Virus record (IMG/VR): IMGVR_UViG_3300027763_000047
Location: 6,308-70,307 of that record
DNA: 64,000 nucleotides
Direction: 5' to 3' (one strand)
Source: a virus
Lineage: Duplodnaviria; Heunggongvirae; Uroviricota; Caudoviricetes
The notes under the pieces are model-generated. The model was not told the DNA's origin. It worked only from the letters and a program-made list of their open reading frames with translations, and did no database searches. The position numbers and the translations under genes are program-made. Position 1 is the first letter of the stretch. Each line of letters starts with the position of its first letter. Below, in pieces: positions 6,162-36,542 of the stretch.

Positions 6162-7222
6162 AGATTAGATTACTGGGGCAGGCGAACGACAGCGGGATCG
6201 GTACACATTACGATAGATACACCCGAGCTTTACAATCGGTCAATGGATTGAACTCCATACTGGAGTTGTTGGATTTTACCGACGCCGATGCTGTAACGCA
6301 ATCCGCAAAATTAAGCACCGCAGGTGATATTAATATATCATTTGTCTGTGCCAATCTCAACGGATATTTTCGTGGACACAATATTAACTGGGCAGTATTT
6401 GAATCCACCCGCATACCCGATACTTTATATCAGGTAATGAATCAGCATATGCTTTGGTTACCGACAGAATGGGCACGCAAGATAGCCATAGCCCAGGGAA
6501 TTAAACCGGAACAGATAGCTGTGGTACCCGAGGGTGTGGACACTGACCTGTTCCATCCTTACGGCATACCGCAACACGAAGTCTTTAGGTTCCTAACCAT
6601 AGGCAAATACGAACAGCGTAAATCAATTGATGAAACGATTGATGCCTTTGCCCAGGTATATGGCGACAACCCTGAGGTGGAACTGGTGATTAAGTCAGAC
6701 TTTTTTCGTGAGCCCGAAGTTAAATATTACCAGTTGCTGGATAAGATTGCCAGTACCGGGGTCGACAACATACACTTGGTCTGGGGTTATCAGACACACG
6801 ACCAATTGGCCAACCTATATAGATCTGCTGATGTATTCCTAATGCCCACCAAGGCCGAGGGTTGGGGCTTGCCTTTAATTGAAGCTGCTGCCATTGGCTT
6901 ACCCATAGTGACAACGTTCCATGCGGGGCAGACAGAGTTCCTACAGCATATAAGATCCAGTTGTGTGTTTGTTGACTATCAACTGACACCCATAGCCTGT
7001 CCCGAGTACCAGGGATTTTACCCTGCTGCTGACGGTGACTACGGCAAGTGGGCAGTTTCTACTGTGCCGGCTATTGCTAAAGCTATTGAACAAGCGTATA
7101 ATAACTATGCAGCATTAAAGTCACAAGCAGTCAAGAACAGTGATGTTATCCGCACTAAATTCTCCTGGGCCAACAGCGTGACTGCATCATTGAGTACGCT
7201 CAAGCAGTGGGGTATGTTGTAA
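6158..7222 (+). CDS. glycosyltransferase, GT4 / Glycos_transf_1-like
   Basis: PTKAEGWGLPLIEAAAIGLPIVTT (E-x7-E motif); ATGA-coupled start at 6158. Confidence 0.8.
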   Translation: MKIRLLGQANDSGIGTHYDRYTRALQSVNGLNSILELLDFTDADAVTQSAKLSTAGDINISFVCANLNGYFRGHNINWAVFESTRIPDTLYQVMNQHMLWLPTEWARKIAIAQGIKPEQIAVVPEGVDTDLFHPYGIPQHEVFRFLTIGKYEQRKSIDETIDAFAQVYGDNPEVELVIKSDFFREPEVKYYQLLDKIASTGVDNIHLVWGYQTHDQLANLYRSADVFLMPTKAEGWGLPLIEAAAIGLPIVTTFHAGQTEFLQHIRSSCVFVDYQLTPIACPEYQGFYPAADGDYGKWAVSTVPAIAKAIEQAYNNYAALKSQAVKNSDVIRTKFSWANSVTASLSTLKQWGML

Positions 7223-7468: not shown

Positions 7469-7666
7469 ATGAAAAGCCGAACCCTTGCAAAGAAGTATCA
7501 TTTTTGGTTTATCCAAGTAAATGATGTCCGCACACGATTTAATCAATACCAGGATGCAAAAGCAGCCTGGGATACTACAACAAAAGGTGTGCTGTGCAGG
7601 GGTGACGGTGCAGTATACGATTGGAAACCTTTTTGTCCTGCGTTGTATGCAGGTGTTGACAATTAA
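7469..7666 (+). CDS. small hypothetical protein
   Basis: MKSRTLAKKYHFWFIQ...; the track extension from 7430 overlaps the upstream gene. Confidence 0.5.
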   Translation: MKSRTLAKKYHFWFIQVNDVRTRFNQYQDAKAAWDTTTKGVLCRGDGAVYDWKPFCPALYAGVDN

Positions 7667-10462: not shown

Positions 10463-13400
10463 TTAATAAAGTTTTGTATAACCATAATTAACTACCACAG
10501 AGTTGCCGCTGGTGTTGTTAATGCTAAAGTCAAATCTATTAGTAGTACTACTTGGAGCAACATTGCTTCTAACTATGGCGTTGGCTGTGCCTATAAATTG
10601 ATTGGGTATGCTGACAAAATCCAACGGTGTACCGCCACCGTTGTAAACCCAAGCATATTGTGTACCCACCACTGGAACATTGGTATTAGTAATGGTAGCT
10701 AGGGCATTCCACGCAATGATGCCGTTGGGTATATTGCCAGTGACCCACATATTATATGTGCCGCTACTTACAGTAAAGCTGTAAGTGTTGGTGCCAGCGG
10801 TTACTGACCAAGAGCCGGTTGTTTGTTGGGCCACATTGGTCAAGCCTGATCCATTACCAACAAAGGTATTAGCAGTAACATTGCCGGCAGCACTGATATT
10901 TGCACCAGAGATGTTGCCAGAAGAGGGTTCAACGGTAGCATAGTTATTATACTTTATATTACCATCATAGAGCATTATACTCATATAACCATTGGAGGTA
11001 ATATCTTGTGTGACTGCTGGAGCTGGTAAACTAGTTAATTGACTACCATTACCTAAAATATAATTGCCAGTAATATTACCGTAGGCACTTAGTGATCCGC
11101 CTGACATACTTGATGGTATCGTAATATCGCCACCACTTACTGTTAATCCTTGTACTCCGGTAATGTTGGCACTGACAACTGTTAGTTCTGACCCAGATGT
11201 TATGTTGCCCGAAACGCTAATATTGCCTTGTTGTATATTAAGATTACTTAGTACATTGCCACTTAAACTTAAATTACCACCATTGATATTTTGTCCATTT
11301 ACATTGGCACCTATTATATTGCCTTCCGCGCTAATGCTACCACCCATGCCGGTATTGGAAGACATTGTAAGATTTCCACCTTCCATTGTAAGGCCATTAA
11401 CACTATAAATGTTAGCGCCATATGCAAAGATGTTGCCACTCAAACTAATATTGCCTGCGGATATATTAGCAGCATTTACATTGCCGCTTATGTTGGCATT
11501 ACTAATAATATTACCTGATAAACTTAGGTTAGCGGCATTAATATCGCCTGAGAAGTTAGCACCAAAAGCATTAAGATATCCGCCGAGGCCAGTAATTTGA
11601 TTAATATTAATATTACCAGCATTGGAAGTAATGCCTGTTACTGTGTCAATTAATAATCCAGAGGCTGTAATGTTACCTGAAGTTGATATTACGTTACTAC
11701 CAAAGTCGCCTAAGAAGTTAGCCACGTTAGCGTTGCCATAATCGCTACCACCAATTGATACCGGGGTACCATTAGCGTAGTTAACTGCAAAAGTATTAGC
11801 TGGTAGAGTCAAGTTGCCTGTGTTACCAAATAACCATTGGTTAATGTTTGGGCCAGCGTTAGTAAAAATACCAACAGAGAAGTCGCTAGTAATACCAAAG
11901 ACGCCTTCGCCTCCGCTTATTGAAGAGTTGTCAGGAAACCTTAAACCACCATTTACACCAAATGTCCATTGTGCTGAGTTACCTACATTGTCATTAGTAT
12001 TAATAACAACGTTACCTGTGTTGGCTAGCTTGACGTACAAGTCATCACTGCCGAAGAACAATTCTGTAGAGTAAAGATTACCCGAAGTCAAGTGCAGATG
12101 ATTGGCATCATTAGTGGTTGGATAAATTAATAACTGTTGATCAGCATTTGTTCCACCTGTTGGCTTTAAAGCAATGGCACTGCCGCTAAGTCCGCCGTCC
12201 GGAATGTTGGTTTCATAGACAACACTATTCAATGGCAAGGTCAAGTTACCAGTAGTGTCAAAGTTCCAAGTCTTTGTGCCACTGACATTACCAGCCTGTA
12301 TGGCCACATTGCCATCCTGTAAAACAGCAACATTGGCTTGTTCATCTGTGCCCAAAATCACATTACCAACGCCACCACCAGCTGCTACATGTATATCCGC
12401 GTTCCCAGTCAAGTAAATATTTAAATACTCATTGCTGGCACCGTTTGGTTGTAGGTTTAAGTTTCCTGTGCCAATGATGTTGACATCATCAAATGTAACA
12501 TTACCTGTATTACCACCTCCGCCACTGAATGTAACAGGATCACCATTGGCATAGTTTACAGCGAATGTATTGGCTGGTAATGTTAAGTTACCAAGGCTAT
12601 CAAATATCCAAGTATTACCAGTTGAAGTGTACCCGTTCCAAGACTGTATGGAAACATTGCCGATTGGAGAAACTCCAACCATCACATTGGCACCAGCATC
12701 TTCACCTAATATAAGACTTCCATCATTGTTGGTAACATGAAGGTCTGGTCCAGAGGTTAGGAAGATGTCCAAATATGAAGCAGCATTGGTAGGATCTGGT
12801 TGTAAGTGTAAGTTACCTGTACCAATGACATTAATATCATTGAATGTTACATTGCCTGTGTTACCACCGCCACCGCCGTATGGACTACCGTTAGCATAGT
12901 TAATACTTGAGTAATTATTTGGTAATGTTATGTTACCGTCAACGCCGAATGTCCAATCAGTCGGAGCAGTATTATTATTACCGGCATTGGCAGCAGTATT
13001 ATATTTGGTTATTACAAATGTTGCCCCACCATTACCAGCAGTCATAGTCAATACATCACCTTCGGAATAACCTGTGCCCGGATCAGTTACACCAACGTTA
13101 ACAACCTGACCACTTAAACCATAACCGTAACCTACTATCATACCTGTACCTGTGCCTCCGGAAATAGCAGAAGAACTTCCGCCACCACCGTAACCACTGC
13201 CACCAGTTAGTAATGTACAGATATTATATTGACCTGTTACTCGTAGTGTCAAGTCGTTTACATTCGGTGCAATGATAGTAGCACTGTTGGGTAGTGTTAA
13301 GTTACCATTTACACCAAAGGCCCATGTATTGGCATTGGCTGTGATATTAACGCTAGTATTACTAGTTTCACTTATTTGGCTACCTTGAGGCAATGTCAAT

Positions 13401-16400
13401 GCACCACTAGCATTAAAATCCCATAGATTAGGACCAGGGCTACCATTTTGTCCTACTGCTATTCTAACAATACCTGATCCTGGAGTAGGGTTAGCATATA
13501 CTGCCGCTATGTTGCTGATGCCAACGTTCGCATAATCTTCTATCCATATGGATACTGCCGCACCATTGGCTCCAGTTGACAATATGGACAGTGGATGATC
13601 CGTAGATGCAATAGAAGCAATATTACCAGCAGGGTCATCAGGTGTGATAACTAAATTACCTGTTGGGAATGTTAAGTTACCAGTAGTGTCAAAGTTCCAC
13701 TGTGCTGAGTTTCCGGTGGCATCATCACTGCCGATCACAACATTGCCGGCGGCTTCTAATTTTACATACTTGATATCGGAGCCAAAGTATTGATCAAAAT
13801 AAGCATTGTTGCCTGTGTCAAGGTGTATGTGTGTGGCAACATCGCCACCACGCACTCGAATATATTGTAAATTGCCCACGCTTTCGGTGCCTGGAGCCAG
13901 GTACAGGCCACTGCTGCCAACTTGATCTCCAGTGCCCACAACAGCTTGATCGTCGAATGTAACGTTGCCTGTGTTGCCGCCGCCACCAGCCGTGTCATAT
14001 GTGATCTCACCAGTAGATGCATCATAATACATGGCATTTGCTGTGTTGGCTTGTCGCACTGGTTTCACTGTGAATGTGTTGACAGTGGTTTGCTCCAGGA
14101 CTGATCCTGTGGCGTTCAATATGATTGAGTTGTTGGCTTGATTGGAGTTGCCGGCTCCGTAGCCAATGGCCACTGCGTATTGGCCCTGTGTGTCTCGCCC
14201 GGCTCCATCACCAACGGCCACGGCCGAGATGCCTTGTGTGTTGTAACCAGCATTTTCGCCAATGGCCACTGCTGAGTTGCCTTGTGTGGTTTGACCAGCT
14301 TCAAAACCAATAGCCACGCCATAGATGCCTTGTGTGGTTTGACCAGCAAGTCTTCCAAATGCTATTGCCGAGGTTCCTTGTGTGGTTGCGCCAGCCCCAA
14401 AACCAATTGCTATTGCCGAGCCACCTTGTGTGGTTTGTCCAGCTCCTTGGCCCACAGCCACCGACGATTCACCTTGTGTGGTTTTACCAGCACTATCACC
14501 GATTGCTACTGATTGGTCACCTTGACTGGTATTACCAGCTTGATAACCAATGGCCACTGATATATTACCTTGATTGACATTACCAGCCGAGTTGCCAATG
14601 GCTACTGCAACCAGGCCTTGATTGGTTAGTCCAGCACCCGAACCAAATGCCACTGCGTCACCCACAGTGTCTTGAATTGTTGCACCGTTTGTGAGTGTGA
14701 TCACGCCTGTGCTGATATTGCCTGCTGTGATATTGCCCGTGGTGCTGATTGGGTTTGATCCTAATGCAGCCAAGTTAGCAACAACATTGGCGTTGCCATA
14801 ACTTGCGGAAATACCAGTCAGTTGACTACCGTTGCCCAGAATATAACTACCAGTGATGTTGCCAACAGCACTGATGTTGCCAGGCACAGTCAAGTTACCA
14901 TCTGTGCCAAAGGTCCATGCATTACCGGCAGTTCTATCCGTGATACTATAATTGTTGCTACCATTGCCAAGAATACCAAAGTCCCATTGCTGAGTTGCGG
15001 TGGCCTGATCCTGCACTGACATATAAGCACTACGCGGAGTATTGTAGTTGTCATCGTAGCCAACCACAGTAATGCCAGGGCCAGCCACAATGCCAAAGTC
15101 TGTGCTTTCTACTCTTGGAGTATTGACCGTTATGTATGGAGTATAATCAACTCGGGGCTGGTAAGCCGTGTTACCGTTAATATCCAATAGACCATCGCCA
15201 TCGAACTGCATGGTGGTGTAGGTATCACCAGGCGTACCGCCTTGATTGGAAAAATCTCCCAACCAATTTATCTGCACCGCTCCAGAGTTGCCGCTAGGAT
15301 AACCACCGTAAGGATCGCCATTGGCATAGTTGATTGATATTTCGCTGTTACCTGGCAGTGTTAAGTTACCATCAGTGTCAAAAGCCCAGTTATAGGTGTT
15401 TGTTCCAATTGATATGTTACCACCGGATTCTAACTTGACATATTTGCTATCATCACCAAAGTATTGATCAAAATAACCATTATCGCCAGTGTCAAGATGT
15501 ATGTGTGTGGCAACATCACCACCACGCACTCTCAAGTATTGTAAATTGCCCGAGCTGTTAGCGCCAGGAGCCAAATACAAGCCACTGCCGCCGATTTCAT
15601 CGCCTGTGCCTACTACAATGTTATTATCAAATGTAACATTACCCGTATTACCGCTACCAGATGGCAGACCAGTTAATTGACTTCCATTGCCTAGGATGTA
15701 ACTTCCGGTAATATTACCAGTTGTTGAAATTACTACGTTACTGTTTGCCAAATATGTAGAAACATCAGCATTTGAGTAACTGGCTGGAAGATTAGTTAAT
15801 TGACTTCCATTACCAACGAAATAATTAGCAGTAATATTGCCGGTAGCAGATACCGTACCTACTGTAAGAACTTCTGTTCCGGAATTATACTTGAATAAAT
15901 TAGAAGTAGTAATATAACCGGTAGAATTAGCAAACGCTACAGCATTAGCATAATAATTAGGAGAGTACAGATTATTTAAAGTAACATCGCCGGCGTTGAT
16001 TGATCCTGTCGTACTAATTGTGTTGGAACCAAAGTTTGCTAAGAAACCAGCAGTATTTGCATTTCCATAATTAGAAGCAATACCAGTTAGCTGACTGCCA
16101 TTGCCAAAGAAATAACTAGCGGTGATATTGCCAGTAGTTGATATATTTGATGTTAATGCTTGTAAGTAAGATGAAACATTGCCATTAGCATATACTTGGC
16201 CTTGTAATGTAGTTATATTACTTGAATTGTTTGAAACATTAGATTGAATACTAATTATAGTATTGTCAGTTGGCAAGTATACGGCTACATTACTGTTACC
16301 ATAACTAGTAGTAACTACAATATTTGATATCAGACCGCCATCACCAATAAAATAGCCACTTGTTGTAATATTACCTACAATAGATAAATTGGCGGTTGAT

Positions 16401-17437
16401 GCTAATTGATATGCCATTCCGGCTACAACAGCTGAGTTGGCATTGTCCGCTTGAACAGCATAAGTTGCTGCGTTAGCTGTTTGTGCTATAGTGGCTGTGT
16501 TAGCAAATGATGCTAAGTTGGCATTGATTGCGAATAAAGCAGTATCAGCATTGATCGCCTGAGTAGCCAATGCTGCTAGATTAGCTACATATGCTGTGTT
16601 AGCAACAAGAGCAAACGGCACATTACCTACAATAGCATTGGCTGTAATGTTAGTGATATTGCTGCCATTGCCATACAGATAATTAGCAGTAACTCTATTA
16701 CCAACAATAGCATTGGCATATACATTCCCGGTTGTTGATACATTACCAGTGATAGATAAGGCAGATATTTGTCCAAAACTAGTTAAGTTTGAATAATTTA
16801 TGCTATTGCTGAATGTATTTCCAAGTAAAGCATTGGCCTGTACATTGGCAATAACATTGGTTAAATTGGCACCATCACCGATGAAAGTAGGTGCTGTAAT
16901 AGCAATTGTGCTATTCCAGCTGTTAGCTGAGTAATTATATGTAAAGTTAGCTCCTGCTATAGGAATTAACAGTCCGCCGCCATTAGCCTGTGCTGCATTG
17001 GCAGCACCGGTTGCTAGTGTAACATTTGAATTAGCAACAGATAAATTAGAATAGTTAACAGTAATAACATTGCCTGTTACCTGCAGGTTACCAGCTACAT
17101 AGACATTACCGGAGAACGTACCGGTGGCAGCGTTTATATATTGAGCGTAAACTGTACTGAAACGATTGGTACCCAACCCAATTGACCGGACATTGGGCAC
17201 ATCTGGTACAAAGTTGGCTGCTGGCACAACAACACCAATGCCATTTGTGGCTAATTGTAAATTGCCATTGTTATTGGTAACCTGTATGGTATTGTTGGCA
17301 ATTGTGATATTGCTGCCCACCGGGCCCGCTGCAAAAAGCTGTGTAAAATTGTAATTGGTGTCGGTAAAAGCTGTACGAAGTGGCGCACCTGTGCCATCGT
17401 TAGCGATATTGCCGGTATTGATAATTATTTGTCCCAT
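10463..17437 (-). CDS. giant tail fiber protein (2324 aa)
   Basis: N-term MGQIIINTGNIANDGTGAPLRTAFTDTNYNFTQLF fiber motif; about 13 S-A-V-A-I-G-x-x-A-G-x-T-T-Q-G repeats; multiple W-x-F-x-x-x-G-N-L-T-L-P and GNGSQLTG modules. Confidence 0.85.
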   Translation of the reverse strand: MGQIIINTGNIANDGTGAPLRTAFTDTNYNFTQLFAAGPVGSNITIANNTIQVTNNNGNLQLATNGIGVVVPAANFVPDVPNVRSIGLGTNRFSTVYAQYINAATGTFSGNVYVAGNLQVTGNVITVNYSNLSVANSNVTLATGAANAAQANGGGLLIPIAGANFTYNYSANSWNSTIAITAPTFIGDGANLTNVIANVQANALLGNTFSNSINYSNLTSFGQISALSITGNVSTTGNVYANAIVGNRVTANYLYGNGSNITNITANAIVGNVPFALVANTAYVANLAALATQAINADTALFAINANLASFANTATIAQTANAATYAVQADNANSAVVAGMAYQLASTANLSIVGNITTSGYFIGDGGLISNIVVTTSYGNSNVAVYLPTDNTIISIQSNVSNNSSNITTLQGQVYANGNVSSYLQALTSNISTTGNITASYFFGNGSQLTGIASNYGNANTAGFLANFGSNTISTTGSINAGDVTLNNLYSPNYYANAVAFANSTGYITTSNLFKYNSGTEVLTVGTVSATGNITANYFVGNGSQLTNLPASYSNADVSTYLANSNVVISTTGNITGSYILGNGSQLTGLPSGSGNTGNVTFDNNIVVGTGDEIGGSGLYLAPGANSSGNLQYLRVRGGDVATHIHLDTGDNGYFDQYFGDDSKYVKLESGGNISIGTNTYNWAFDTDGNLTLPGNSEISINYANGDPYGGYPSGNSGAVQINWLGDFSNQGGTPGDTYTTMQFDGDGLLDINGNTAYQPRVDYTPYITVNTPRVESTDFGIVAGPGITVVGYDDNYNTPRSAYMSVQDQATATQQWDFGILGNGSNNYSITDRTAGNAWTFGTDGNLTVPGNISAVGNITGSYILGNGSQLTGISASYGNANVVANLAALGSNPISTTGNITAGNISTGVITLTNGATIQDTVGDAVAFGSGAGLTNQGLVAVAIGNSAGNVNQGNISVAIGYQAGNTSQGDQSVAIGDSAGKTTQGESSVAVGQGAGQTTQGGSAIAIGFGAGATTQGTSAIAFGRLAGQTTQGIYGVAIGFEAGQTTQGNSAVAIGENAGYNTQGISAVAVGDGAGRDTQGQYAVAIGYGAGNSNQANNSIILNATGSVLEQTTVNTFTVKPVRQANTANAMYYDASTGEITYDTAGGGGNTGNVTFDDQAVVGTGDQVGSSGLYLAPGTESVGNLQYIRVRGGDVATHIHLDTGNNAYFDQYFGSDIKYVKLEAAGNVVIGSDDATGNSAQWNFDTTGNLTFPTGNLVITPDDPAGNIASIASTDHPLSILSTGANGAAVSIWIEDYANVGISNIAAVYANPTPGSGIVRIAVGQNGSPGPNLWDFNASGALTLPQGSQISETSNTSVNITANANTWAFGVNGNLTLPNSATIIAPNVNDLTLRVTGQYNICTLLTGGSGYGGGGSSSAISGGTGTGMIVGYGYGLSGQVVNVGVTDPGTGYSEGDVLTMTAGNGGATFVITKYNTAANAGNNNTAPTDWTFGVDGNITLPNNYSSINYANGSPYGGGGGNTGNVTFNDINVIGTGNLHLQPDPTNAASYLDIFLTSGPDLHVTNNDGSLILGEDAGANVMVGVSPIGNVSIQSWNGYTSTGNTWIFDSLGNLTLPANTFAVNYANGDPVTFSGGGGNTGNVTFDDVNIIGTGNLNLQPNGASNEYLNIYLTGNADIHVAAGGGVGNVILGTDEQANVAVLQDGNVAIQAGNVSGTKTWNFDTTGNLTLPLNSVVYETNIPDGGLSGSAIALKPTGGTNADQQLLIYPTTNDANHLHLTSGNLYSTELFFGSDDLYVKLANTGNVVINTNDNVGNSAQWTFGVNGGLRFPDNSSISGGEGVFGITSDFSVGIFTNAGPNINQWLFGNTGNLTLPANTFAVNYANGTPVSIGGSDYGNANVANFLGDFGSNVISTSGNITASGLLIDTVTGITSNAGNININQITGLGGYLNAFGANFSGDINAANLSLSGNIISNANISGNVNAANISAGNISLSGNIFAYGANIYSVNGLTMEGGNLTMSSNTGMGGSISAEGNIIGANVNGQNINGGNLSLSGNVLSNLNIQQGNISVSGNITSGSELTVVSANITGVQGLTVSGGDITIPSSMSGGSLSAYGNITGNYILGNGSQLTSLPAPAVTQDITSNGYMSIMLYDGNIKYNNYATVEPSSGNISGANISAAGNVTANTFVGNGSGLTNVAQQTTGSWSVTAGTNTYSFTVSSGTYNMWVTGNIPNGIIAWNALATITNTNVPVVGTQYAWVYNGGGTPLDFVSIPNQFIGTANAIVRSNVAPSSTTNRFDFSINNTSGNSVVVNYGYTKLY

Positions 17438-27912: not shown

Positions 27913-28124
27913 TGGAAATTGATATGACAGAATTTGTTCTTACCCGTAAACAAGTGTTACAATTATCGGAAATTGCTAGCAAGTTTCCACATGTACAACA
28001 TTACACCATCTCCTTTAGTAATGAATCTGGAATTGGCACTAGTGTAACAGCTAAGTTTGTATTATTTGACGATGCCAAAGACTTTGATGCAACAGTGGAT
28101 CTCACGGATTTAGGTTCATGGTGA
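27912..28124 (+). CDS. small hypothetical protein
   Basis: 70 aa. Confidence 0.45.
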   Translation: MEIDMTEFVLTRKQVLQLSEIASKFPHVQHYTISFSNESGIGTSVTAKFVLFDDAKDFDATVDLTDLGSW

Positions 28125-28181
28125 TAAGGAGATATAAATGCCAATACGAACTAGAACTATATTTAATTAATAGGACAAAAA

Positions 28182-28598
28182 ATGCTTGATTGTTTGATTG
28201 TAGGCGATTCAATCGCCGTTGGTACTAAGATGTTTATGCCCCACTGCCAGTTACAGGGCAAAGGTGGTATTAATACCTGGCAGTTTAATAAGATGTACAA
28301 GGGCAGTTTTTATGCTGATACAGTTATTATCAGTCTAGGTTCAAACGACCATAAAGGTGTAAAGACCTATGATGAACTGTTTGAAATGCGTCAGCGTGTA
28401 GGTGCTAAGAATGTATTTTGGGTATTGCCAGCAGGCAATAATCCTGCAGGTGGTGTATCAATTGAAAAAATTCAAAGTATCGTGAAAGAAATCGCCAGTA
28501 GTTATGGTGATACAGTATTGCCTATTACACGATTACAACCTGATGGAATTCATCCATCATGGGCAGGTTACAAAAATATTGCAGAGAAAGCAAAATGA
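28182..28598 (+). CDS. SGNH/GDSL-type hydrolase
   Basis: LIVGDSIAVG, SLGSNDH, C-terminal DGIHP. Confidence 0.6.
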   Translation: MLDCLIVGDSIAVGTKMFMPHCQLQGKGGINTWQFNKMYKGSFYADTVIISLGSNDHKGVKTYDELFEMRQRVGAKNVFWVLPAGNNPAGGVSIEKIQSIVKEIASSYGDTVLPITRLQPDGIHPSWAGYKNIAEKAK

Positions 28599-28825
28599 AC
28601 GAACAGAAGATTAAAGAATTGGTGCTAGCCGCAGGTGCTGAGTATCATTTTGGAGGGGATATTTTGGTAAACAATGTGCATATATTTGCTGAAAAGTTGA
28701 TTGAGTTGACTGTTAAGGAATGTATTTCTGTCTTAGAAGAAGAAGTTGTGGGGTCGATTGACCGGCATGGCGATAACGTCTACCTGGACCTTATATTAAA
28801 CAAACATTTTGGAGTTGACAAATGA
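28595..28825 (+). CDS. small protein of the HFGVEE paralog family
   Basis: FAEKLIELTVKECI ... LNKHFGVDK; ATGA coupled. Confidence 0.5.
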   Translation: MNEQKIKELVLAAGAEYHFGGDILVNNVHIFAEKLIELTVKECISVLEEEVVGSIDRHGDNVYLDLILNKHFGVDK

Positions 28826-29013
28826 ATTTTTTAATTACCTTATACAATAATACTTTGGATTGGCTGGAACGTCATGAAAAAATAGTATTGGGATTTATCT
28901 TGGGAGTAATCTCATTCACTGTGCTGATGTTATTACTAAACGCACATTGGGTCGCAGCAGGTATTTTTGCTGTGCTTACATTTCTTAATTTTTACCTCAA
29001 CAGAAACAAATAA
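28822..29013 (+). CDS. small membrane protein
   Basis: two hydrophobic segments. Confidence 0.45.
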   Translation: MNFLITLYNNTLDWLERHEKIVLGFILGVISFTVLMLLLNAHWVAAGIFAVLTFLNFYLNRNK

Positions 29014-29018
29014 GTAAT

Positions 29019-29171
29019 ATGAAAACTTTAATTCACTCCGGATGGGTTATAACTTGGCTATTTGGAATAGTATTAGCTAAAGGTTTTTGGAGTACATTAG
29101 TTGCAGTAATCTTCCCACTATGGGGATACTACTTGGTAGCTGAATACGTAGTACTGAAGTACTTACAATAG
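29019..29171 (+). CDS. small membrane protein (50 aa), not in track
   Basis: MKTLIHSGWVITWLFGIVLAKGFW... Confidence 0.35.
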   Translation: MKTLIHSGWVITWLFGIVLAKGFWSTLVAVIFPLWGYYLVAEYVVLKYLQ

Positions 29172-29179
29172 GAGTTATT

Positions 29180-29371
29180 ATGAATGCAGATCGCAGAATG
29201 GTAGCAGAAGCTGTAGTACAAGGTCTAGTTAGTGAAGAACATTTGACCTTATCAGAGTTAAATGAGATGATTGAAATATTAAGCGATGTATCAATTCATC
29301 AAGGACTTGAAGACGCTCGTCTTCGTGGATGTATTGTATTTTATGGATTTGACATAGAAACAATACATTAA
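29180..29371 (+). CDS. small hypothetical protein
   Basis: 63 aa. Confidence 0.4.
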   Translation: MNADRRMVAEAVVQGLVSEEHLTLSELNEMIEILSDVSIHQGLEDARLRGCIVFYGFDIETIH

Positions 29372-29503
29372 GTACCGCTATAACTACCATTATATGCGTA
29401 GTTATAGCAGTTAAGTACAAGGTTATTCAAAAGATTTGTTAGTTAAATAATCTTGCTATATAATATGTTACTCAATGTAGTTCAATTTAAAAAAGGAAAA
29501 GTA

Positions 29504-30673
29504 ATGAAATTTACTCAAAAAATGCTGGCAGCAGCTTTACTGGCACTAGGTCTTGGATCTAGCGCAGCTCACGCCGCAGACTCGTCTGTGACACTATACG
29601 GTATCTTAGATGCCGGTCTCCAAGGCTCTTCACAAAGTTTGTCCAACGGTTACTCATCAAGTAATGTTGGATTGGCCTCTGGTGTGCAGTCAGGCAATCG
29701 CTTTGGTATCAAAGGTTCGGAAGATTTAGGTTCAGGTCTTCGTGCTACTTTTGCTCTTGAAGCAGGCTTCAACTTAGGTAGTGGTGTTAGTCAGCAAAAT
29801 GGCACCTTGTTTGGTCGTCAATCATGGGTTGGTGTTGAAAGCAGCTCGTTAGGTTACGCTCGTGTAGGTAAGCAATATAACTTTGCAACAGACTATGTTG
29901 GCGCAATTGATCCATTCCTCTTGGGATTTGGTCAGGCTAATATGGGTACCACATTCGGTGCTGCTAATACTACCCGTTATAACAACATGGTTAAGTATCA
30001 GACACCAACATGGAATGGCTTAACAGCTGGTGTTGGTTATTCGTTTGCTAACGGCTTGGCTAGTTTGTATGCTGATCCAGCTAACTACGGTGGATATGTT
30101 GCTGCTAACACATACAACTATGCCACAGCTAACAACGCTCGTACATTAACAGCTGGTATTAAGTATGCGTCTGGTCCCGTGACTGTTGTTGGTTCATATG
30201 ATGTTATGTATGGTCCTGAAAACATTGTTGGTTCAAATGCTGCTAATCCATCACAGTGGATTGTGGGCGGTGCGTATGACTTCTCAGTTGCTAAAATTGC
30301 TGCTGCGTACAGTCAGTCACGTAACGGTTGGATCAATGGACAAGCTAGTGTAGACCCAACATTCACAGCCAACACTTATAACAGTGGTGCCGGTGCCGTG
30401 TTGTATAGTCCTTCGTTTGGTGCTAACAGCTATCTAGTAGGTGCTACTGTTCCTGTAACAGGCGCACAGAAAGTATTTGCCAGCTATCAATATGCTACTC
30501 CGGTCGCATCAATGGCTGCTGCTGCTAATCTGAGCATTTATTCAGTTGGTTATCAATATGACTTGTCAAAGCGTACCAATGCGTATGCCTATGCTAGTCA
30601 GGCTCAAAACTATGCGTTCTTAGACGGTGCCAAGAGCACAGTTTATGGACTTGGTTTACGGCATCAGTTCTAG
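29504..30673 (+). CDS. Gram-negative outer-membrane porin (betaproteobacterial porin_4-like)
   Basis: signal peptide ending AHA-AD; VTLYGILDAG; C-terminal ...GLRHQF; start at ATG 29504 after AAGGAAAAG. Confidence 0.75.
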   Translation: MKFTQKMLAAALLALGLGSSAAHAADSSVTLYGILDAGLQGSSQSLSNGYSSSNVGLASGVQSGNRFGIKGSEDLGSGLRATFALEAGFNLGSGVSQQNGTLFGRQSWVGVESSSLGYARVGKQYNFATDYVGAIDPFLLGFGQANMGTTFGAANTTRYNNMVKYQTPTWNGLTAGVGYSFANGLASLYADPANYGGYVAANTYNYATANNARTLTAGIKYASGPVTVVGSYDVMYGPENIVGSNAANPSQWIVGGAYDFSVAKIAAAYSQSRNGWINGQASVDPTFTANTYNSGAGAVLYSPSFGANSYLVGATVPVTGAQKVFASYQYATPVASMAAAANLSIYSVGYQYDLSKRTNAYAYASQAQNYAFLDGAKSTVYGLGLRHQF

Positions 30674-30688
30674 AAGTAAAAGGATAAC

Positions 30689-31228
30689 ATGAACAAGTTT
30701 TTATCAATCGTTATCCTAGCACTGGCTTCCGCTTCAGCGGTTGCTGGTGGCTATGTAACAGCAACCGACGGCAGCATCGTTAAGACTGGTAGTGATTTGT
30801 GTTTACACACAGGTTATTACACAGCTACTGATGCAGTTAAAGGTTGTGACGCAGTTCCAGTTACCCCAGCTAAGCCAGCATCAATCACGCTTGACTCAGA
30901 TGTATTGTTTAAGTTTGATTCGGCAACGCTAACCGCAGACGGTGTGAAAGCACTGGACGTGGTTGCAGCCAAAGCCGGTGGCGTTGTAATCATCGTAGGA
31001 CACACTGATCGTATTGGATCTAGTCGATACAATCAATCTTTAAGTGTTGCTCGTGCTGACACCGTTGCAAAATATGTAGGTGCAAAGGCAAAAGCAGATT
31101 ACTCAGTAACTGGAGTTGGATCCACACAACCAAGTGGCAAAACAAAACAATGTATTGGCCCTATGAGCCCGCAACTTATTGCTTGTTTAGCACCTGATCG
31201 TCGTGTAGTTATTACTATCGTTAAGTAA
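30689..31228 (+). CDS. OmpA-family C-terminal domain protein (signal peptide)
   Basis: VIIVGHTDRIGSSRYNQSLSVARADTV OmpA-like motif. Confidence 0.75.
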   Translation: MNKFLSIVILALASASAVAGGYVTATDGSIVKTGSDLCLHTGYYTATDAVKGCDAVPVTPAKPASITLDSDVLFKFDSATLTADGVKALDVVAAKAGGVVIIVGHTDRIGSSRYNQSLSVARADTVAKYVGAKAKADYSVTGVGSTQPSGKTKQCIGPMSPQLIACLAPDRRVVITIVK

Positions 31229-31331
31229 CATGGCTTGGGCCTCTGCGGTTTAACCGTACGCCTGAGTTTTCTAAATATAGCAACAAAACCCTACCCTGCC
31301 TCTCGCAGAAGCACACTTTGGAGGGTTACTC

Positions 31332-31362
31332 GGGACACAGTAATGTGTCCCATTTCTTTCTC
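31332..31362 (+). terminator. rho-independent terminator
   Basis: gggacaca-gtaa-tgtgtccc followed by atttctttctc. Confidence 0.65.
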
Positions 31363-31391
31363 TTGACATTTAATTCATCAACAACTATACT
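31363..31391 (+). promoter_or_regulatory. sigma70-type promoter
   Basis: ttgacatttaattcatcaacaactatact. Confidence 0.6.
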
Positions 31392-31451
31392 GTTATTATA
31401 GCAGTAAGAAGAATTTTATGCAGGTAACTCTCAAGATTAGGAACTATTATA

Positions 31452-31628
31452 ATGATTAGACTTTGGTTAATATTTGTTGTACTTTCAATATTAATTCATT
31501 TGGGTATCTCCACCTGGAGAAATATGAAAGGTAAGGATCGATGGGCATTGACTAAGTCCATTGGTTATAGTATAATTGTTGCATTACTAGTTGTTCTATT
31601 CTTAACTTCAATCGTTATTTTATTCTAA
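31452..31628 (+). CDS. small two-TM membrane protein (58 aa), not in track
   Basis: MIRLWLIFVVLSILIHLG... Confidence 0.4.
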   Translation: MIRLWLIFVVLSILIHLGISTWRNMKGKDRWALTKSIGYSIIVALLVVLFLTSIVILF

Positions 31629-31636
31629 GGAATTAT

Positions 31637-32434
31637 ATGAAACAAATTTTTAAATTGGCAGTTGTAGCAGGTCTTATCGCAACCACAGTTGGTTGTCAGC
31701 GTATTGAAACCGGCGAAGTAGGTGTACGAGTTGGCTTTGATAAACAAGTAAAACCAGGCGAGTTGCAACCAGGTTCTTTTAATCAAACACTAATTGGTGA
31801 TGTACTTACATTCCCTGTTCGTGATGTATCAGTTAAGATTGATGACATGACTCCGCTTGCCAAAGACAACAGCACTATGAAAGACATGGATGTTACTGTT
31901 ATCTATAACATCAATCCAACGCAAGTTAGCGAATTGTATGTTAGCAAGAACCGTAGCTTTCACGTTAAGCACAATGGTGACACTTACTTGATGTACAACT
32001 ACATTTTCAATGCCGCACGAAATGCTGCTTACAAAGCTGCTCGTAAGTATGACGCATTGACTATGAACGACAGTCGTGCGTTAATGGAACAGGATATGAA
32101 AGACATCATTGCCAAGACCTTGGCAGATGAAAATCTTGCTGGTTCAATTACAGTAAGCCAAGTTCTTATTCGTGCGCTAACTCCAGCAGACTCAGTGGTT
32201 GCGTCAGCCAATGAATTGGTACGTTCTAAGAACGAGCTGTTGCAAAAGGAGGTTGAAGTCAAAACAGCCGAAGCAGAATCTCGTCGTATGGCAGCACTTA
32301 CCAATCAAAGCTCGGCCAGTATTGCTTACATGAATGCTCAGGCTGCGTTAAACATCTCCGAAGGTGTCAAGAACGGTAAGGTGCAGACCATTATTGTTCC
32401 CAGCAACATGACCGGCTTGATGATTGGCAAGTAA
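31637..32434 (+). CDS. SPFH/band-7 domain lipoprotein
   Basis: lipobox LIATTVGC; ETGEVGVRVGF...DVTVIYNINP SPFH-like core. Confidence 0.55.
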   Translation: MKQIFKLAVVAGLIATTVGCQRIETGEVGVRVGFDKQVKPGELQPGSFNQTLIGDVLTFPVRDVSVKIDDMTPLAKDNSTMKDMDVTVIYNINPTQVSELYVSKNRSFHVKHNGDTYLMYNYIFNAARNAAYKAARKYDALTMNDSRALMEQDMKDIIAKTLADENLAGSITVSQVLIRALTPADSVVASANELVRSKNELLQKEVEVKTAEAESRRMAALTNQSSASIAYMNAQAALNISEGVKNGKVQTIIVPSNMTGLMIGK

Positions 32435-32684
32435 TATGAACGAACGATTTCAGCAACTATTGAAACAGAGTACCAATCCTCCCTGGGATGGTGAGCAGGG
32501 CCCAATGAACGAATTTAATTTGGAACGGTTCGCTGAGTCGATTGTAAGAGAATGTGCCAAGTATATCAATGAACGCACTCAAGACTGGGATGCCGATTTG
32601 CGGTGGATCTTCAATGACGGTTCTGGTGATATGGCAGTCAATGTTGACGAATTATTAAATAGACATTTCGGAGTTGAAGAATGA
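32424..32684 (+). CDS. small protein of the HFGVEE family
   Basis: FAESIVRECAKYI ... LNRHFGVEE. Confidence 0.55.
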   Translation: MASNMNERFQQLLKQSTNPPWDGEQGPMNEFNLERFAESIVRECAKYINERTQDWDADLRWIFNDGSGDMAVNVDELLNRHFGVEE

Positions 32685-32878
32685 ACGAACGAATTAGAGA
32701 GCTTGCTGATGATGCTGGATTTATGGATTCTTGGTTTTCCGAATCCGGTGATGATTGTGAACGAGAACTTAAAAAGTTCGCCGAGTTGATTGTCGAAGAA
32801 TGTATTAATATTTGTATTTCCAATAGAAACGATGACTCTGCCCAGTACATCGAAAAACATTTCGGAGTTGAAGAATGA
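32681..32878 (+). CDS. small protein of the HFGVEE family
   Basis: FAELIVEECINICI ... IEKHFGVEE. Confidence 0.55.
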   Translation: MNERIRELADDAGFMDSWFSESGDDCERELKKFAELIVEECINICISNRNDDSAQYIEKHFGVEE

Positions 32879-33138
32879 ACTTAGAACTGGTAGCCAAGCT
32901 ATACGAGCAATCATATAAGACAGTACCACATAACCCCACCAGCGGCTTTGATGCTAAATTGGAGGATCGTGTGTTTGTACCAGAGTTGTTCGCCGAGTTA
33001 CTGGTCATGGAATGCTATGAAAGTTGCAGAAGTCAGGTACTTGATAAAGAAACTGCTGACACAAACGAACTAACATATAATGATGCTGTTGGTGATTGTG
33101 CAATTGGGTTATTACAACATTTTGGGATGATGGAATGA
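32875..33138 (+). CDS. small protein of the HFGVEE family
   Basis: FAELLVMECYESC ... LLQHFGMME. Confidence 0.5.
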   Translation: MNLELVAKLYEQSYKTVPHNPTSGFDAKLEDRVFVPELFAELLVMECYESCRSQVLDKETADTNELTYNDAVGDCAIGLLQHFGMME

Positions 33139-33281
33139 AGAAAACATTGGCTGTGCTACTTACAATTACTTTCCCAATTTGGTGTATCCCTGCTGTGCTG
33201 GGGTCACTAGCTTACTTGGCAGTGGCTACACTATATAAAGAAATGTTGGCATTTTTAGAATGGCTTGGAGTTAAAGAATGA
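33135..33281 (+). CDS. small membrane peptide
   Basis: ATGA-coupled; ends LEWLGVKE using the same junction cassette. Confidence 0.4.
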   Translation: MKKTLAVLLTITFPIWCIPAVLGSLAYLAVATLYKEMLAFLEWLGVKE

Positions 33282-33733
33282 CAAATCGTAGAGGATTTTT
33301 ACAATCAGTATCGGCAGCATTGGGGTCAACCCTGTTGTCTGGTAGTACAGTTGCATCAGTATTGACAGCCGCACCTGTAGCATCAGGAGTAGCCACAGTG
33401 GCCGCAGTTGCGGCAGTGGCCAGACAGTTTAAGTCGAGTGGTGTTGTTCTTGATGCTGCCACGCTTGAACCAATATCTCGGGTGGTGATATTTAATGGAG
33501 ACGAGTCAGTAATTAAAGAAGACGTGAAGTATTCTGAGATATTTGACGATCCGGCAAGACTAGCAGAAATTGAAGAATTGGATAAATTATATCCTAATTC
33601 CAATGTGCATAGTAAATGGACCTTGGCGGCGACACGTTTGGTACTGGAAAAGAAAGGCATGCCACCACTTACTGCCGAGGAAGAAATTATGATTATTGAA
33701 GGTCGAAAGCCCGTGGTTGGAGTCGAGGGATGA
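33278..33733 (+). CDS. Tat-signal (twin-arginine) secreted protein
   Basis: MTNRRGFLQSVSAALGSTLLSG... Confidence 0.5.
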   Translation: MTNRRGFLQSVSAALGSTLLSGSTVASVLTAAPVASGVATVAAVAAVARQFKSSGVVLDAATLEPISRVVIFNGDESVIKEDVKYSEIFDDPARLAEIEELDKLYPNSNVHSKWTLAATRLVLEKKGMPPLTAEEEIMIIEGRKPVVGVEG

Positions 33734-34302
33734 CGTGGCCATTGGCTTCTCCATTGAAAGAAAATACCAACTGGATCGTTAGGGATAACGTCTTTAGTAA
33801 TATTGAGCTTGATCAAATAATTAAATTAGGCAACAGTATTACCTCCAGTACCGGTACGATAGGTTCTGAAATAACTAACGAATATCGTAAATCCAGTATA
33901 GCCTGGCTGGATACTGAAGATCCAGAATTCGATTGGATATATGCCACGCTTGCACCAGTGATTACTGAAATCAATGATGCATATTATCGATTTGATCTGA
34001 AGTCCCTCCAGACTTTACAGTTTACCCGGTATACCACCGCTGGCGTATATAAACCGCATACCGATCTGGGTAGGCAAAAGCCCACTAGAAAGTTGAGTTT
34101 TACTGTACAATTATCTGATACGACAAATTACGAAGGTGGAGATTTGCGTTTTTTAAATTTAAAGACAACCCCCGAGTCAGCCCCCAGGGCTCGAGGAAAA
34201 ATTATTTTCTTCCCCAGCTGGATGACTCACGAGATAACTCCCGTGACCCAGGGTACACGATATAGTCTAGTTGGGTGGGTAGAAGGACCGTTATTCAGAT
34301 GA
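33730..34302 (+). CDS. 2OG-Fe(II) oxygenase (prolyl-4-hydroxylase-like)
   Basis: YKPHTDL (HxD), WMTHEI (His), RYSLVGW (Arg). Confidence 0.7.
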   Translation: MTWPLASPLKENTNWIVRDNVFSNIELDQIIKLGNSITSSTGTIGSEITNEYRKSSIAWLDTEDPEFDWIYATLAPVITEINDAYYRFDLKSLQTLQFTRYTTAGVYKPHTDLGRQKPTRKLSFTVQLSDTTNYEGGDLRFLNLKTTPESAPRARGKIIFFPSWMTHEITPVTQGTRYSLVGWVEGPLFR

Positions 34303-34417
34303 CGTCGGTAACGGCATCTGTATCGTTTTTGGCTAACCAGGTCAAGATGAATACTAAATTCAGATGAAATCTGCATGATGTGGATCAGTACGCTGTATCG
34401 GTATAAATACTATTATC

Positions 34418-36358
34418 ATGAAAATACACGAAATTACCTTGTTATTCGAGGGTTATCCCCAAGCTCAAGATGCTTTTATTCAGCAATCGGGCGGTGATAC
34501 TGCATCAGTACAAAAAACTATCGCCGACTTTCGTCAGTTGGTGAATAGAAATCAGATCAAAGACACAAACCAAAAGAATATCGATTGGTGGGCCAAACAG
34601 GGCTGGGATAAGTTCAATGCTTTTGTCAATCAGGCATCAGCAATACCCAGCAAGACGCAAATGACCAGAAAGAAAATACCTGGGCAAAGCATCAACTTGG
34701 TGGATGATGCTCAGTGGCTCATCGTTGTGCCACTGGACAAGGAAGCCAGCTGTTTTCATGGAAGAAACAGCAGTTGGTGTACTACTAAAGTTCATCAGGA
34801 ACATTTTGAAAATTACTTCTACAACAATGAAGTAACCTTGATATATTGCTTTAATAAAGCCACTGGTGGTATGTGGGCTATAGCGGCACATAAAAGAACA
34901 GATCGCATGGAAATGTTTACACAACAAGATGCATCAATATCGGCAGAACAATTTACACAACTGACTGGTCTAGATCCTCAACAGTTACGATCCATGGCTC
35001 TGGGTGACGTTCATCAACCTGCAGTACAGGCATCCAGAGATCAATGGAAGGAATCTGTAGCATTGACAAAACAATTGATGGCTACAATGCCACGCGGCAC
35101 CAGATCGGCAGAAATAGAAAAGCAATTGGAGTATAATAAAGTAGGGGGATTATGCTTTGATTATATCTACCGATTTCAGTCAATTGAATCCAAAGACTTT
35201 CCGTTGTCGATACAGATATCGGCAATTAACAAAAATGGTGCCGTATTGGACCGAATCAATAATCCTGTTCAAGCTGTGCAACTGGCAGCAGTCAAGAAGG
35301 AAAATCTTGGGTTGAAAACCATCATTGCTCATGGAGCCAAGCCCAATGAAGCCGTACAACTGGCAGCAGTCACACAACACGGTCCTGCTATAGGTTTCCT
35401 GAAAGCCGCCGGCATCACTCCCAGCGAGGCTGTTCAAATGGCAGCAGTAAATCAGAGCGGTACTGCTATACATTCCATCATATCGAATGGTATCGTGCCC
35501 AGTGATGAGGTGCAAATAGCAGCAGTAACTCAGAATCCAGAAGCAATAAAATTCATAATCACAGATTTGGGCACTGAGCCAAGTCATGCTGTGCAAATGG
35601 CAGCAGTCAAACGTTACGGCGGAACGTTTCGAATGTTGATGAATCATGGAATTGTTCCCAGCAAAGACGTTCAAGAAGAAGCAATAGCCAGGGACGGCCT
35701 TAGTATACAATATTTGAAAAATCCCAATGAGAGATTACAATTGGCCGCAGTTAGCAATGTTGGCAGGGCTATATTGTTTATTCTCCGGGCCGGCATCAGA
35801 CCAAGTCACGCGGTGCAATTGGCAGCAGTGACGCAGGATGGGCTGGCACTCGATTATATCTTACAGGATAAAATTAAACCAGAGTATGATGTGCTATTAG
35901 CAGCAGTGACCCAGGATGGCCGTGCCATTGAATATATCCAAAATCCCGACGAGCGATTACAGATAGCCGCAGCCAAGAGAAATAGTGGTGCATTAAAACT
36001 TTTAATGAAAGCTGGAATAACCCCCAGTTATGCCGTACAGATGGCGTCAGTTACTCATGATCCCTGGTCTATAAAATATTTGAAAAATCCCGATGAGAGA
36101 TTACAATTGGCCGCAGTCAACAATCATGGTGGTGCATTACATGAAATAATCAAATCTGGAATTCTTCCCAGCGAGGCGGTACAATTGGCCGCGGTCAAAT
36201 CAAGCCCCATAGTATTACGTATGATCCAAAATCCCAGCATGGCGGTTCGCGACGCTGCACACATAGCAGCACAAGAGAAAAAAGCTCAAGAGGATGCTGC
36301 TATAAACGCTGCCAGAGCTGCCAGAGCTGCTCAAGGTGCCCAAGCAGCACCGGCCTAA
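34418..36358 (+). CDS. repeat protein with about 14 tandem ~37-aa repeats (DUF4116-like)
   Basis: repeats P-S-x-A-V-Q-[LM]-A-A-V-x-Q-x-G-x-A-[IL]-x-[YF]-[IL]; TATAAATA 10 nt upstream. Confidence 0.55.
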   Translation: MKIHEITLLFEGYPQAQDAFIQQSGGDTASVQKTIADFRQLVNRNQIKDTNQKNIDWWAKQGWDKFNAFVNQASAIPSKTQMTRKKIPGQSINLVDDAQWLIVVPLDKEASCFHGRNSSWCTTKVHQEHFENYFYNNEVTLIYCFNKATGGMWAIAAHKRTDRMEMFTQQDASISAEQFTQLTGLDPQQLRSMALGDVHQPAVQASRDQWKESVALTKQLMATMPRGTRSAEIEKQLEYNKVGGLCFDYIYRFQSIESKDFPLSIQISAINKNGAVLDRINNPVQAVQLAAVKKENLGLKTIIAHGAKPNEAVQLAAVTQHGPAIGFLKAAGITPSEAVQMAAVNQSGTAIHSIISNGIVPSDEVQIAAVTQNPEAIKFIITDLGTEPSHAVQMAAVKRYGGTFRMLMNHGIVPSKDVQEEAIARDGLSIQYLKNPNERLQLAAVSNVGRAILFILRAGIRPSHAVQLAAVTQDGLALDYILQDKIKPEYDVLLAAVTQDGRAIEYIQNPDERLQIAAAKRNSGALKLLMKAGITPSYAVQMASVTHDPWSIKYLKNPDERLQLAAVNNHGGALHEIIKSGILPSEAVQLAAVKSSPIVLRMIQNPSMAVRDAAHIAAQEKKAQEDAAINAARAARAAQGAQAAPA

Positions 36359-36441
36359 AAGGCAGCATAATTTAAATGAGGACCTTGGCGCTCTATGTAT
36401 CAGTTTTGGCTAACTAGGTCAAGAAAAATAATAAATTATGG

Positions 36442-36470
36442 TTGACATTTAATCAAAGGTCAGCTATAAT
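36442..36470 (+). promoter_or_regulatory. perfect consensus sigma70 promoter
   Basis: ttgacatttaatcaaaggtcagctataat. Confidence 0.7.
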
Positions 36471-36542
36471 GTAGTTGTAGTATGTAGTTAAGTTTAACTT
36501 TTATTTTAATCAACTTTGAAAGGCATCTTAGAAAGGCATCTT

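Follow-up and report, generated by a model that had tools for sequence, protein, structure and literature searches.

A 64,000-nucleotide stretch of phage DNA (the window: positions 6,308 to 70,307 of the IMG/VR record IMGVR_UViG_3300027763_000047, a virus of the Caudoviricetes) carries, within a long run of plus-strand genes, a gene for a general outer-membrane porin followed by one for an anchor protein of the RmpM / Bordetella-OmpA type. Our results show that these two genes form a self-contained operon, with its own promoter, a structured 3′ end and a terminator at 31351. We see about an even chance that through this operon the phage supplies its host's major porin-anchor complex, sustaining solute influx and outer-membrane tethering in a long jumbo-phage infection. 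The protein families are already known, as are the phage porin precedents Lc and NmpC. What appears to be new, in that we did not find it described, is that large lytic-type phages keep a porin and an RmpM-like anchor in a conserved operon, together with repeated exchange with hosts and a structured RNA. The literature that we searched contained no prior jumbo-phage porin and no phage porin-RmpM pair, which is not proof of absence; to our knowledge, phage porins have so far come mainly from a few temperate coliphages.

The first gene of the operon encodes a general porin that, judging from its predicted structure, is intact, has 16 strands and belongs to the betaproteobacterial (Omp38/Omp32/PorB) type. 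Its product matches the Pfam profiles Porin_4 (E-value 1.9e-41, 143.3 bits for a cutoff of 27) and Porin_1 (E 2.4e-13, 50.7 bits for a cutoff of 23.7). The start codon, an ATG at 29504, is preceded by AAAGGAAAAGTA, and by inspection the precursor opens with a Sec-type signal peptide of about residues 1-24, with the putative cleavage point at MKFTQKMLAAALLALGLGSSAAHA/AD (...AHA/AD). At its other end the protein finishes in ...GLGLRHQF, that is, with a terminal Phe; a C-terminal GxRHxF is conserved, and G384, R386, H387 and F389 are invariant in an alignment of 24 sequences. In the AlphaFold2 model (predicted local distance difference test 79.6, predicted template modelling score 0.80), DSSP gives 16 barrel strands once a short strand at 51-59 is placed inside loop L1. 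The top Foldseek matches of this model were Burkholderia BpsOmp38, Delftia Omp32 and Neisseria PorB (E 5e-23 to 1e-17), with template modelling scores on the target of 0.73-0.80 against 8wv0, 2fgq and 3wi5, and a sequence search of the PDB likewise returned Omp38, Omp32 and PorB as best matches. Conservation is uneven along the chain, with a within-clade identity of 0.93 for the constriction loop L3 (126-157), the long loop folded into the barrel, and of only 0.60-0.77 for L1, L4, L5 and L7.

The second gene encodes a protein built from a Sec signal peptide, an N-domain of about 35 residues with a pair of Cys, a Pro-rich linker and an OmpA-C domain, with no membrane barrel. Residues 20-56 carry the conserved Cys pair, and the linker that comes after them reads PVTPAKPA. 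The OmpA-C domain is recognised by PF00691 (E 4.4e-11, 43.4 bits for a cutoff of 27.2); among PDB sequences it matches the OmpA C-terminal domain (E 1.5e-18) and RmpM (1r1m, E 1.1e-8), and the fold of its model matches the Salmonella OmpA C-domain (4rha, E 7e-12) and again RmpM (1r1m, E 1.7e-9). Alignment shows C38, C53 and the motif GHTDRIG...YN..LS..RA to be invariant, including D107 and R122 with the flanking motif residues. The NCBIfam model OmpABordt (NF045787) matches residues 9-148, N-domain included, with an E-value of 5.3e-21. The N-domain is in fact the most conserved part of the anchor, with a mean distance of 0.31 versus 0.45 for the C-domain; a search for a solved structure of it returned chance-level matches only. 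An earlier reading of this DNA (the sequence-only reading) had proposed a beta-barrel porin with a betaproteobacterial signature and a C-terminal Phe, next to an OmpA-C-like protein at 30689. Both proposals hold, and modelling gives the porin barrel and the OmpA-C fold on which they depended.

The operon is headed by a sigma-70-like promoter (Table 1), of which the TATATAAT box and the TTG-containing -35 region are kept in six related phages, along with an upstream CAAAAnATTTG and the ribosome-binding site, while the flanks vary. Between the preceding gene and this promoter, at 29377-29408, lies an 11-bp inverted repeat (GCTATAACTAC ... GTAGTTATAGC) that is kept in one relative (L107) and partly in another (L003). 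Behind the anchor gene, the transcript is predicted to fold into three hairpins, the last of which is the intrinsic terminator. Comparison of nine distinct sequences of this element showed 98.9% of cells to be paired and a compensatory change in 8 of the 34 pairs; none of 500 shuffles reached the covariation score, and shifted pairings collapse. A 74-nt core of the element is 92% identical in a relative (L008) despite an anchor protein that is only ~46% identical.

Table 1. Features of the porin-anchor operon and of its surroundings, with positions in the window.
Feature	Position	Strand	Details
GDSL/SGNH-type hydrolase, 138 aa	28182-28598		no signal peptide; near the porin-anchor pair
Small paralog, fourth copy	28544-28825		
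Sigma-70-like promoter of the porin operon	29436-29464	+	TTGTTA-17-TATAAT; 10/12 hexamer matches
Porin precursor, 389 aa	29504-30673	+	signal peptide, predicted 16-strand barrel, conserved L3 loop, C-terminal GLRHQF
RmpM / Bordetella-OmpA-type protein, 179-aa precursor	30689-31228	+	begins 16 nt past the porin stop
Structured 3′ RNA element, three hairpins	31229-31362	+	minimum free energy -44.3 kcal/mol, z = -3.96
Intrinsic terminator of the operon	31332-31351 and T-run	+	last hairpin of the element; terminator scan
Phage consensus promoter	31361-31391	+	TCTTGACATTTAATTC ... TATACT; 11/12 matches; heads the downstream module
58-aa protein	31452-31628	+	two hydrophobic segments; directly upstream of Band_7; no family match
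SPFH/Band_7 lipoprotein	31637-32434	+	Band_7 E 3.8e-21, 76.4 bits (cutoff 23.6); phrog_200 'lipoprotein' E 1.5e-30
Three tandem small paralogs	32424-32684, 32678-32878, 32872-33138	+	
Tat-motif protein, 151 aa	33278-33733	+	starts MTNRRGFLQ; no Pfam domain
2OG-Fe(II) (2-oxoglutarate-Fe(II)) oxygenase	33730-34302	+	start overlaps the Tat-motif stop; PF13640 E 1.4e-16, phrog_61 E 2.6e-34
DUF4116 repeat protein	downstream of the 2OG-Fe(II) oxygenase		

The two genes travel together in phages. Among contigs that extend far enough downstream, they are adjacent in 15 of 17 distinct phage loci and split by insertions in the other two (L017 and L107), the insert in L107 (4928-7808), which is closest among the long relatives, consisting of an HNH endonuclease gene on the minus strand and genes for proteins of 616 and 68 aa. 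By comparison, no homolog of the anchor was present within 4 kb of the porin in any of 80 bacterial loci, all from Alcaligenaceae (Zwartia, Sheuella, Achromobacter and Bordetella) and with porin identities of 43-52%. The closest bacterial porins that we found are only ~52% identical to that of the window. Homologs at 69-94% identity are all metagenomic, and every such contig inspected was phage-like, with genes for an RNA ligase, HNH endonucleases, NAMPT and Hc1 and many small genes. Porins that are just ~50% identical, on contigs of 104-285 kb, are likewise followed by an anchor gene, and overall no fewer than four porin lineages have the pair, the phage contigs concerned being 100-285 kb long. 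The sequence-only reading had called phage-encoded porins rare; in agreement with this, 50,697 GenBank phage records yielded one weak porin fragment only (from an unclassified faecal-metagenome contig) and, by tblastn, no match to the OmpA-like anchor.

The C-domain of RmpM binds peptidoglycan and its N-domain presumably binds porins; proteins of this type attach the outer membrane to peptidoglycan, and their loss weakens the link (PMC8610307). [quoted passage not shown] Since a porin of this type and an RmpM-like anchor are both encoded by the phage, we propose that the phage makes the dominant Alcaligenaceae-type porin-anchor complex. Host RNA polymerase would transcribe the operon from the sigma-70-like promoter, at a time that can be judged from the promoter type alone, and both products would be exported via their Sec signal peptides. 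The terminal-Phe beta-signal and the modelled barrel suggest that the host's outer-membrane insertion machinery would place the porin as a trimeric diffusion channel. By analogy with RmpM, the N-domain of the anchor would hold the periplasmic face of the porin trimers, and its modelled OmpA-C domain, whose peptidoglycan-binding motif is intact, would bind the wall. An association of the N-domain with porin has indirect support from the kept adjacency of the two genes in phages and from the strong conservation of this domain. The phage-made complex would thus keep up or raise solute influx and tie the outer membrane to the wall while a long and costly jumbo-phage infection runs its course. A role in uptake is supported by the neighbourhood of the pair in related phages, where a gene for a PstS-like binding protein or a TctA transporter lies within a few kb downstream and where, in some relatives, NAMPT and phosphoribosyl pyrophosphate (PRPP) synthetase genes stand between the pair and Band_7.

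Several observations weigh against this proposal. The uptake genes (PstS, TctA) are found in relatives and not in the window. Within one lytic cycle new porins can do no more than add to the existing host porins, which may leave little gain in influx. The anchor scores 75.2 bits with OmpABordt, below the equivalog cutoff of 200, which makes it an architectural relative and not an equivalog. Finally, porin and anchor trees agree only partially (r = 0.48) and there is clear recombination, for example in L010 and L023; these results led us to reject tight porin-anchor co-evolution, and the two proteins are not tightly co-evolving partners.

A third option, after the supply of a working complex and the receptor-based reading weighed below, is that the role is purely mechanical. 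In this case the extra complexes and the SPFH module downstream would stiffen the link between outer membrane and wall, and the channel would be incidental; the rationale is that an infected cell should neither bleb nor lyse before the giant virions are finished. The weakening of this link upon loss of RmpM-type proteins (PMC8610307) fits such a role, as do the invariant peptidoglycan-binding motif, the N-domain as the most constrained part of the anchor and the clustering of envelope genes at this place. However, L3 is among the most conserved segments of the porin, and its identity of 0.93 argues that the pore itself matters. An anchor alone could moreover act on host porins, which leaves its constant porin partner without a reason, and some relatives have the SPFH module with no such pair beside it. 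We judge a mechanical role on its own to be quite unlikely.

That the two genes might be passenger DNA or an artefact, i.e. a recent host fragment, a chimera or decaying genes with no role for the phage, is hardly credible. The bin at 30-31 kb does have a GC content of 0.456, versus 0.414 for the whole window, and the proteins are host-like. Yet assemblies made independently from other samples (L107, L111 and L003) show the gene order of the region again. In L107 (148.6 kb) the order is GDSL hydrolase, small genes, porin, OmpA-like protein, Band_7, Tat-motif protein, oxygenase, DUF4116, ... He_PIG protein; in L111 it is porin, OmpA-like protein (97% identical to that of the window), Band_7, Tat-motif protein and oxygenase. 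The same order in independent assemblies indicates that the contig is not chimeric here. A chimeric contig or a host junction, which the sequence-only reading had named as fatal to its own claim, was thus rejected, with selection and codon composition also speaking against it.

Porin and anchor genes are under purifying selection: the ratio of nonsynonymous to synonymous substitution rates (dN/dS), in unsaturated comparisons, is 0.11-0.19 in the porin gene and 0.16-0.19 in the anchor gene, and the reading frames are intact. The comparison of codon usage that the sequence-only reading had called for gave GC contents at third codon positions (GC3) of 0.33 for the porin and 0.29 for the anchor, within the range of the other window genes (mean 0.377, s.d. 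0.063) and apart from the bacterial homologs (0.50-0.88). Such phage-like (ameliorated) GC3 values together with low dN/dS argue that both genes are long-term phage residents and not a recent capture. With the promoter and ribosome-binding site conserved too, and the closest bacterial porins as distant as they are, these conservation and selection data refute the passenger or artefact reading.

The history of the porin nevertheless involves hosts. We built a neighbour-joining tree with bootstraps, a simple distance method to which some mis-binned 'bacterial' contigs of metagenome-assembled genomes could have contributed. In it, phage porins and Zwartia-type Alcaligenaceae porins form one clade (support 1.00), apart from Achromobacter and Bordetella. 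Within this clade the phage porins were monophyletic in none of 300 bootstraps: one group of them (clade C) joins Zwartia hollandica-type porins at 1.00, and the window's own porin clade is a separate deep branch of the tree. The isolate genomes of Zwartia panacis, Z. vadi and Z. hollandica give the same picture. This polyphyly of the phage porins among Zwartia-type porins points to repeated exchange with hosts. The hint of a betaproteobacterial host, which had been drawn from the porin type, can accordingly be narrowed, as the porin points to Alcaligenaceae of the Zwartia/Sheuella type. Synonymous divergence (dS) from L107 is 0.41 in the window's porin gene and 1.14 in its anchor gene, compared with only 0.04-0.18 in the downstream Tat-motif, oxygenase and DUF4116 genes. 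The Band_7 allele differs as well, with 265 aa and a separate 58-aa gene in the window and 354 aa in L107 and L111. Mosaic dS values and the partial agreement of the two trees suggest that the locus is a recombination hot spot, in which porin alleles have repeatedly been exchanged between host and phage.

We also compared the host porin genes themselves across 17 genomes of Zwartia-type Alcaligenaceae (L027-L041, L052 and L103), with attention to the segment that runs from -100 to +63 around the porin start. The region coding for the signal peptide is on average 97% identical at the nucleotide level, the 100-nt leader 69% and the mature region ~41% (both ungapped); the flanks have a GC content of 0.49-0.61. 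All phage porin copies are without this conserved 5′ leader and signal-peptide segment, which in the hosts may be a regulatory or recombination site.

These results bear on the main rival explanation, receptor replacement or superinfection exclusion, which we hold to be unlikely. It states that the phage porin replaces or dilutes a host porin used as receptor, and that the 3′ RNA lowers host porin in an IpeX-like manner. Phage porins that are polyphyletic and interleaved with host porins would fit a receptor-type conflict, and the surface loops L1, L4, L5 and L7 are the most variable parts of the protein. A covarying structured RNA follows the operon, and IpeX likewise comes from a phage porin transcript, being made as part of the transcript of a prophage porin and controlling OmpC (PMC12197685). 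The absence from all phage copies of a 5′ segment that is near-invariant in the hosts can be read in the same sense. On the other hand, an Rfam scan of the whole window brought no family to its gathering score and gave no match to IpeX, and duplex energies between the 3′ element and the 5′ regions of candidate host porins were not significant (z = -1.0 to -1.6 versus shuffles). The element is moreover limited to the window's own phage clade, whereas the gene pair is far wider. Outer-membrane porins are stable, so that a lytic infection cannot remove the receptors already present. No integrase, repressor or other lysogeny gene was seen among the window genes scanned, and we know of no lysogenic phage among the cultured relatives found.

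A more far-reaching version, decidedly improbable in our view, would make of the operon a complete outer-membrane reprogramming cassette, by which infected cells switch to a phage-specified permeability and receptor surface. The phage would have to capture, repeatedly, whichever porin allele its host has at the time; the polyphyly would be explained in this way. It would also have to strip the extremely conserved host 5′ leader and signal-peptide segment, so that its copy escapes post-transcriptional control by the host. Lastly, it would couple the porin to an anchor of its own and use the co-transcribed 3′ RNA in trans, IpeX-like, to switch off the making of host porin.

In some relatives, other genes occupy the slot directly after the pair. 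CsgF, CsgG and a curlin-repeat protein are encoded there in three of them (L014 9858-14186, L006 7900-13164 and L018 9824-11678), and look like a phage-borne curli secretion set. L014 and L006 additionally carry genes for a FecR-domain protein and a PstS-like binding protein in this slot; the Pfam E-values in L014 are 2e-18, 5e-51, 2e-6, 2e-12 and 7e-35 for the set of CsgF, CsgG, curlin, FecR and PstS-like proteins. On a contig of 216.7 kb (L024, 2690-4944), the pair is followed right away by a TctA tricarboxylate transporter gene (E 8.5e-59) and a gene for a signal-peptide protein of 295 aa, which resembles Bug/TctC receptors by eye and has no Pfam match. As in the window, a GDSL/SGNH-type hydrolase gene also lies near the pair in the distant relatives L013, L015, L021 and L023 (62-90% identity).

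Downstream of the operon the picture changes. The sequence-only reading had seen a single island of host-like envelope genes, in which the porin and the OmpA-like protein were joined by an SPFH/band-7 lipoprotein (31637) and a Tat-signal protein (33278), interleaved with phage-style small paralogs and a phage consensus promoter. The individual features were all recovered, and the porin and OmpA-like genes are indeed of host type within a genuine phage genome; the SPFH and Tat-motif genes turned out to be phage-typical. Band_7 adjoins or nearly adjoins the Tat-motif gene in L107, L111, L114 and L115, and this adjacency is kept in relatives with no porin in the 10 kb examined on either side. Instead of one island there are therefore two modules. 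The second, with Band_7, the Tat-motif protein and the oxygenase, is typical of phages, has a consensus promoter of its own and is not host cargo.

This promoter, at 31361, belongs to a series. Its extended -35 consensus, TCTTGACA(A/T)TTAATTC, has seven plus-strand copies (at 7654, 18815, 23064, 23884, 27348, 31361 and 38830). At up to three mismatches the window holds these seven sites, all on the plus strand, versus 1.17 expected, and none of 100 shuffles reached seven. Each of the six sites checked lies shortly upstream of the start of an open reading frame (ORF). They probably represent a single temporal class among the promoters of the phage, used by the host polymerase.

The SPFH protein has a lipobox-like ...TTVGC with Cys at residue 20 (by inspection) and homologs in 189 phage records; the 58-aa protein ahead of it has a homolog in the same position in L001 and L002. 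The four small paralogous ORFs share the ending HFGV[DE][EK] or HFGMME and give cross-hits in related phages, and a small hydrophobic protein is encoded between them and the Tat-motif protein. The latter has 112 homologs, all of them unnamed metagenome entries except UFOVP190_194 from an uncultured Caudovirales phage. Its RRGFLQ motif is invariant in 16 aligned homologs (R4, R5, F7 and L8) and, with the hydrophobic stretch behind it, fits S/T-R-R-x-F-L-K, so that on sequence grounds the protein is a candidate Tat substrate. The hydrophobic region, however, spans ~40 residues, which is unusual for a signal peptide. The N-terminal 50 residues, comprising RRGFLQ and the hydrophobic stretch, are more conserved than the remainder, and in L114 (9214-10444) the protein is 66% identical versus 34% for the adjacent Band_7. 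Conservation of the N-region hints at a role beyond that of a cleaved signal peptide, and it may be a membrane anchor or have another role.

Elsewhere, the window has genes that mark it as phage DNA, among them those for a clamp loader (phrog_168, E 5e-77), part of a DNA polymerase and two structural proteins of the virion. A ClpA-like ATPase is ~40% identical to its counterparts in the jumbo phages PA5oct and Phosso, and the DUF4116 repeat protein has cultured relatives only in phages of 440-490 kb (Salicola SCTP-2 and Agrobacterium Atu_ph07). A 2324-aa ORF on the minus strand (10463-17437) has no Pfam or PHROG match. The window contains no tRNA genes, a near-identity DNA search with 28000-36500 against GenBank phages gave no match, and looking up the exact porin sequence in public assemblies gave none either. 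A defence system was considered and rejected, as PADLOC returned only generic matches to a MotB/ZorB domain and to 2OG.

In the large uncultured phages of a whole clade, a porin and a wall anchor are retained by selection in a single transcription unit. Provided that the products arrive in the outer membrane, these phages remodel both the main permeability barrier of their hosts and the tether between outer membrane and wall. This would bear on the nutrient flux of infected cells in natural waters and on the evolution of porins as phage receptors. The porin also offers a host assignment, to Zwartia-type Alcaligenaceae, and leads for experiments are given by the conserved 3′ RNA and by the genes for curli secretion, PstS and TctA that relatives carry in this slot.

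The closest parallels are the PorB-RmpM complex of Neisseria and OmpP-BP0943 of Bordetella. The phage porin shares its fold class with the betaproteobacterial general porins, and the phage anchor is laid out like RmpM and BP0943, with a short N-domain joined through a linker to the peptidoglycan-binding OmpA-C domain. The bacterial proteins together make up the main complex by which the outer membrane is tethered to the wall (PMC8610307). The pair described here differs in that it is phage-encoded, has both genes in one operon and includes a porin at most 52% identical to the bacterial ones.

A phage-carried general porin followed by a structured RNA is likewise found in Lc/NmpC with IpeX. Lc (of phage PA-2) and NmpC (of DLP12) are enterobacterial OmpC/OmpF-type porins of temperate lambdoid phages, and we know of no anchor gene beside either. 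In contrast, the porin of the window is of the Porin_4/Alcaligenaceae type, lies in a jumbo-phage-like genome in which no lysogeny genes were seen, and has an RmpM-like partner. The 3′ element is unrelated to IpeX in sequence, has no Rfam match and is only a candidate regulatory RNA.

With regard to function, the PstS-type uptake genes of cyanophages are likewise host-derived and selected, and are thought to sustain nutrient supply during infection; unlike them, the porin-anchor pair would act at the outer membrane and wall, not in the periplasm or at the inner membrane. Phage envelope morons such as Lom and Bor of lambda, Llp of T5 and Cor are small, single exclusion or virulence factors. They too are phage-encoded and targeted to the host envelope, and are not homologous to the porin-anchor pair, which in contrast combines a full diffusion channel with an anchor and is conserved across a clade of large phages.

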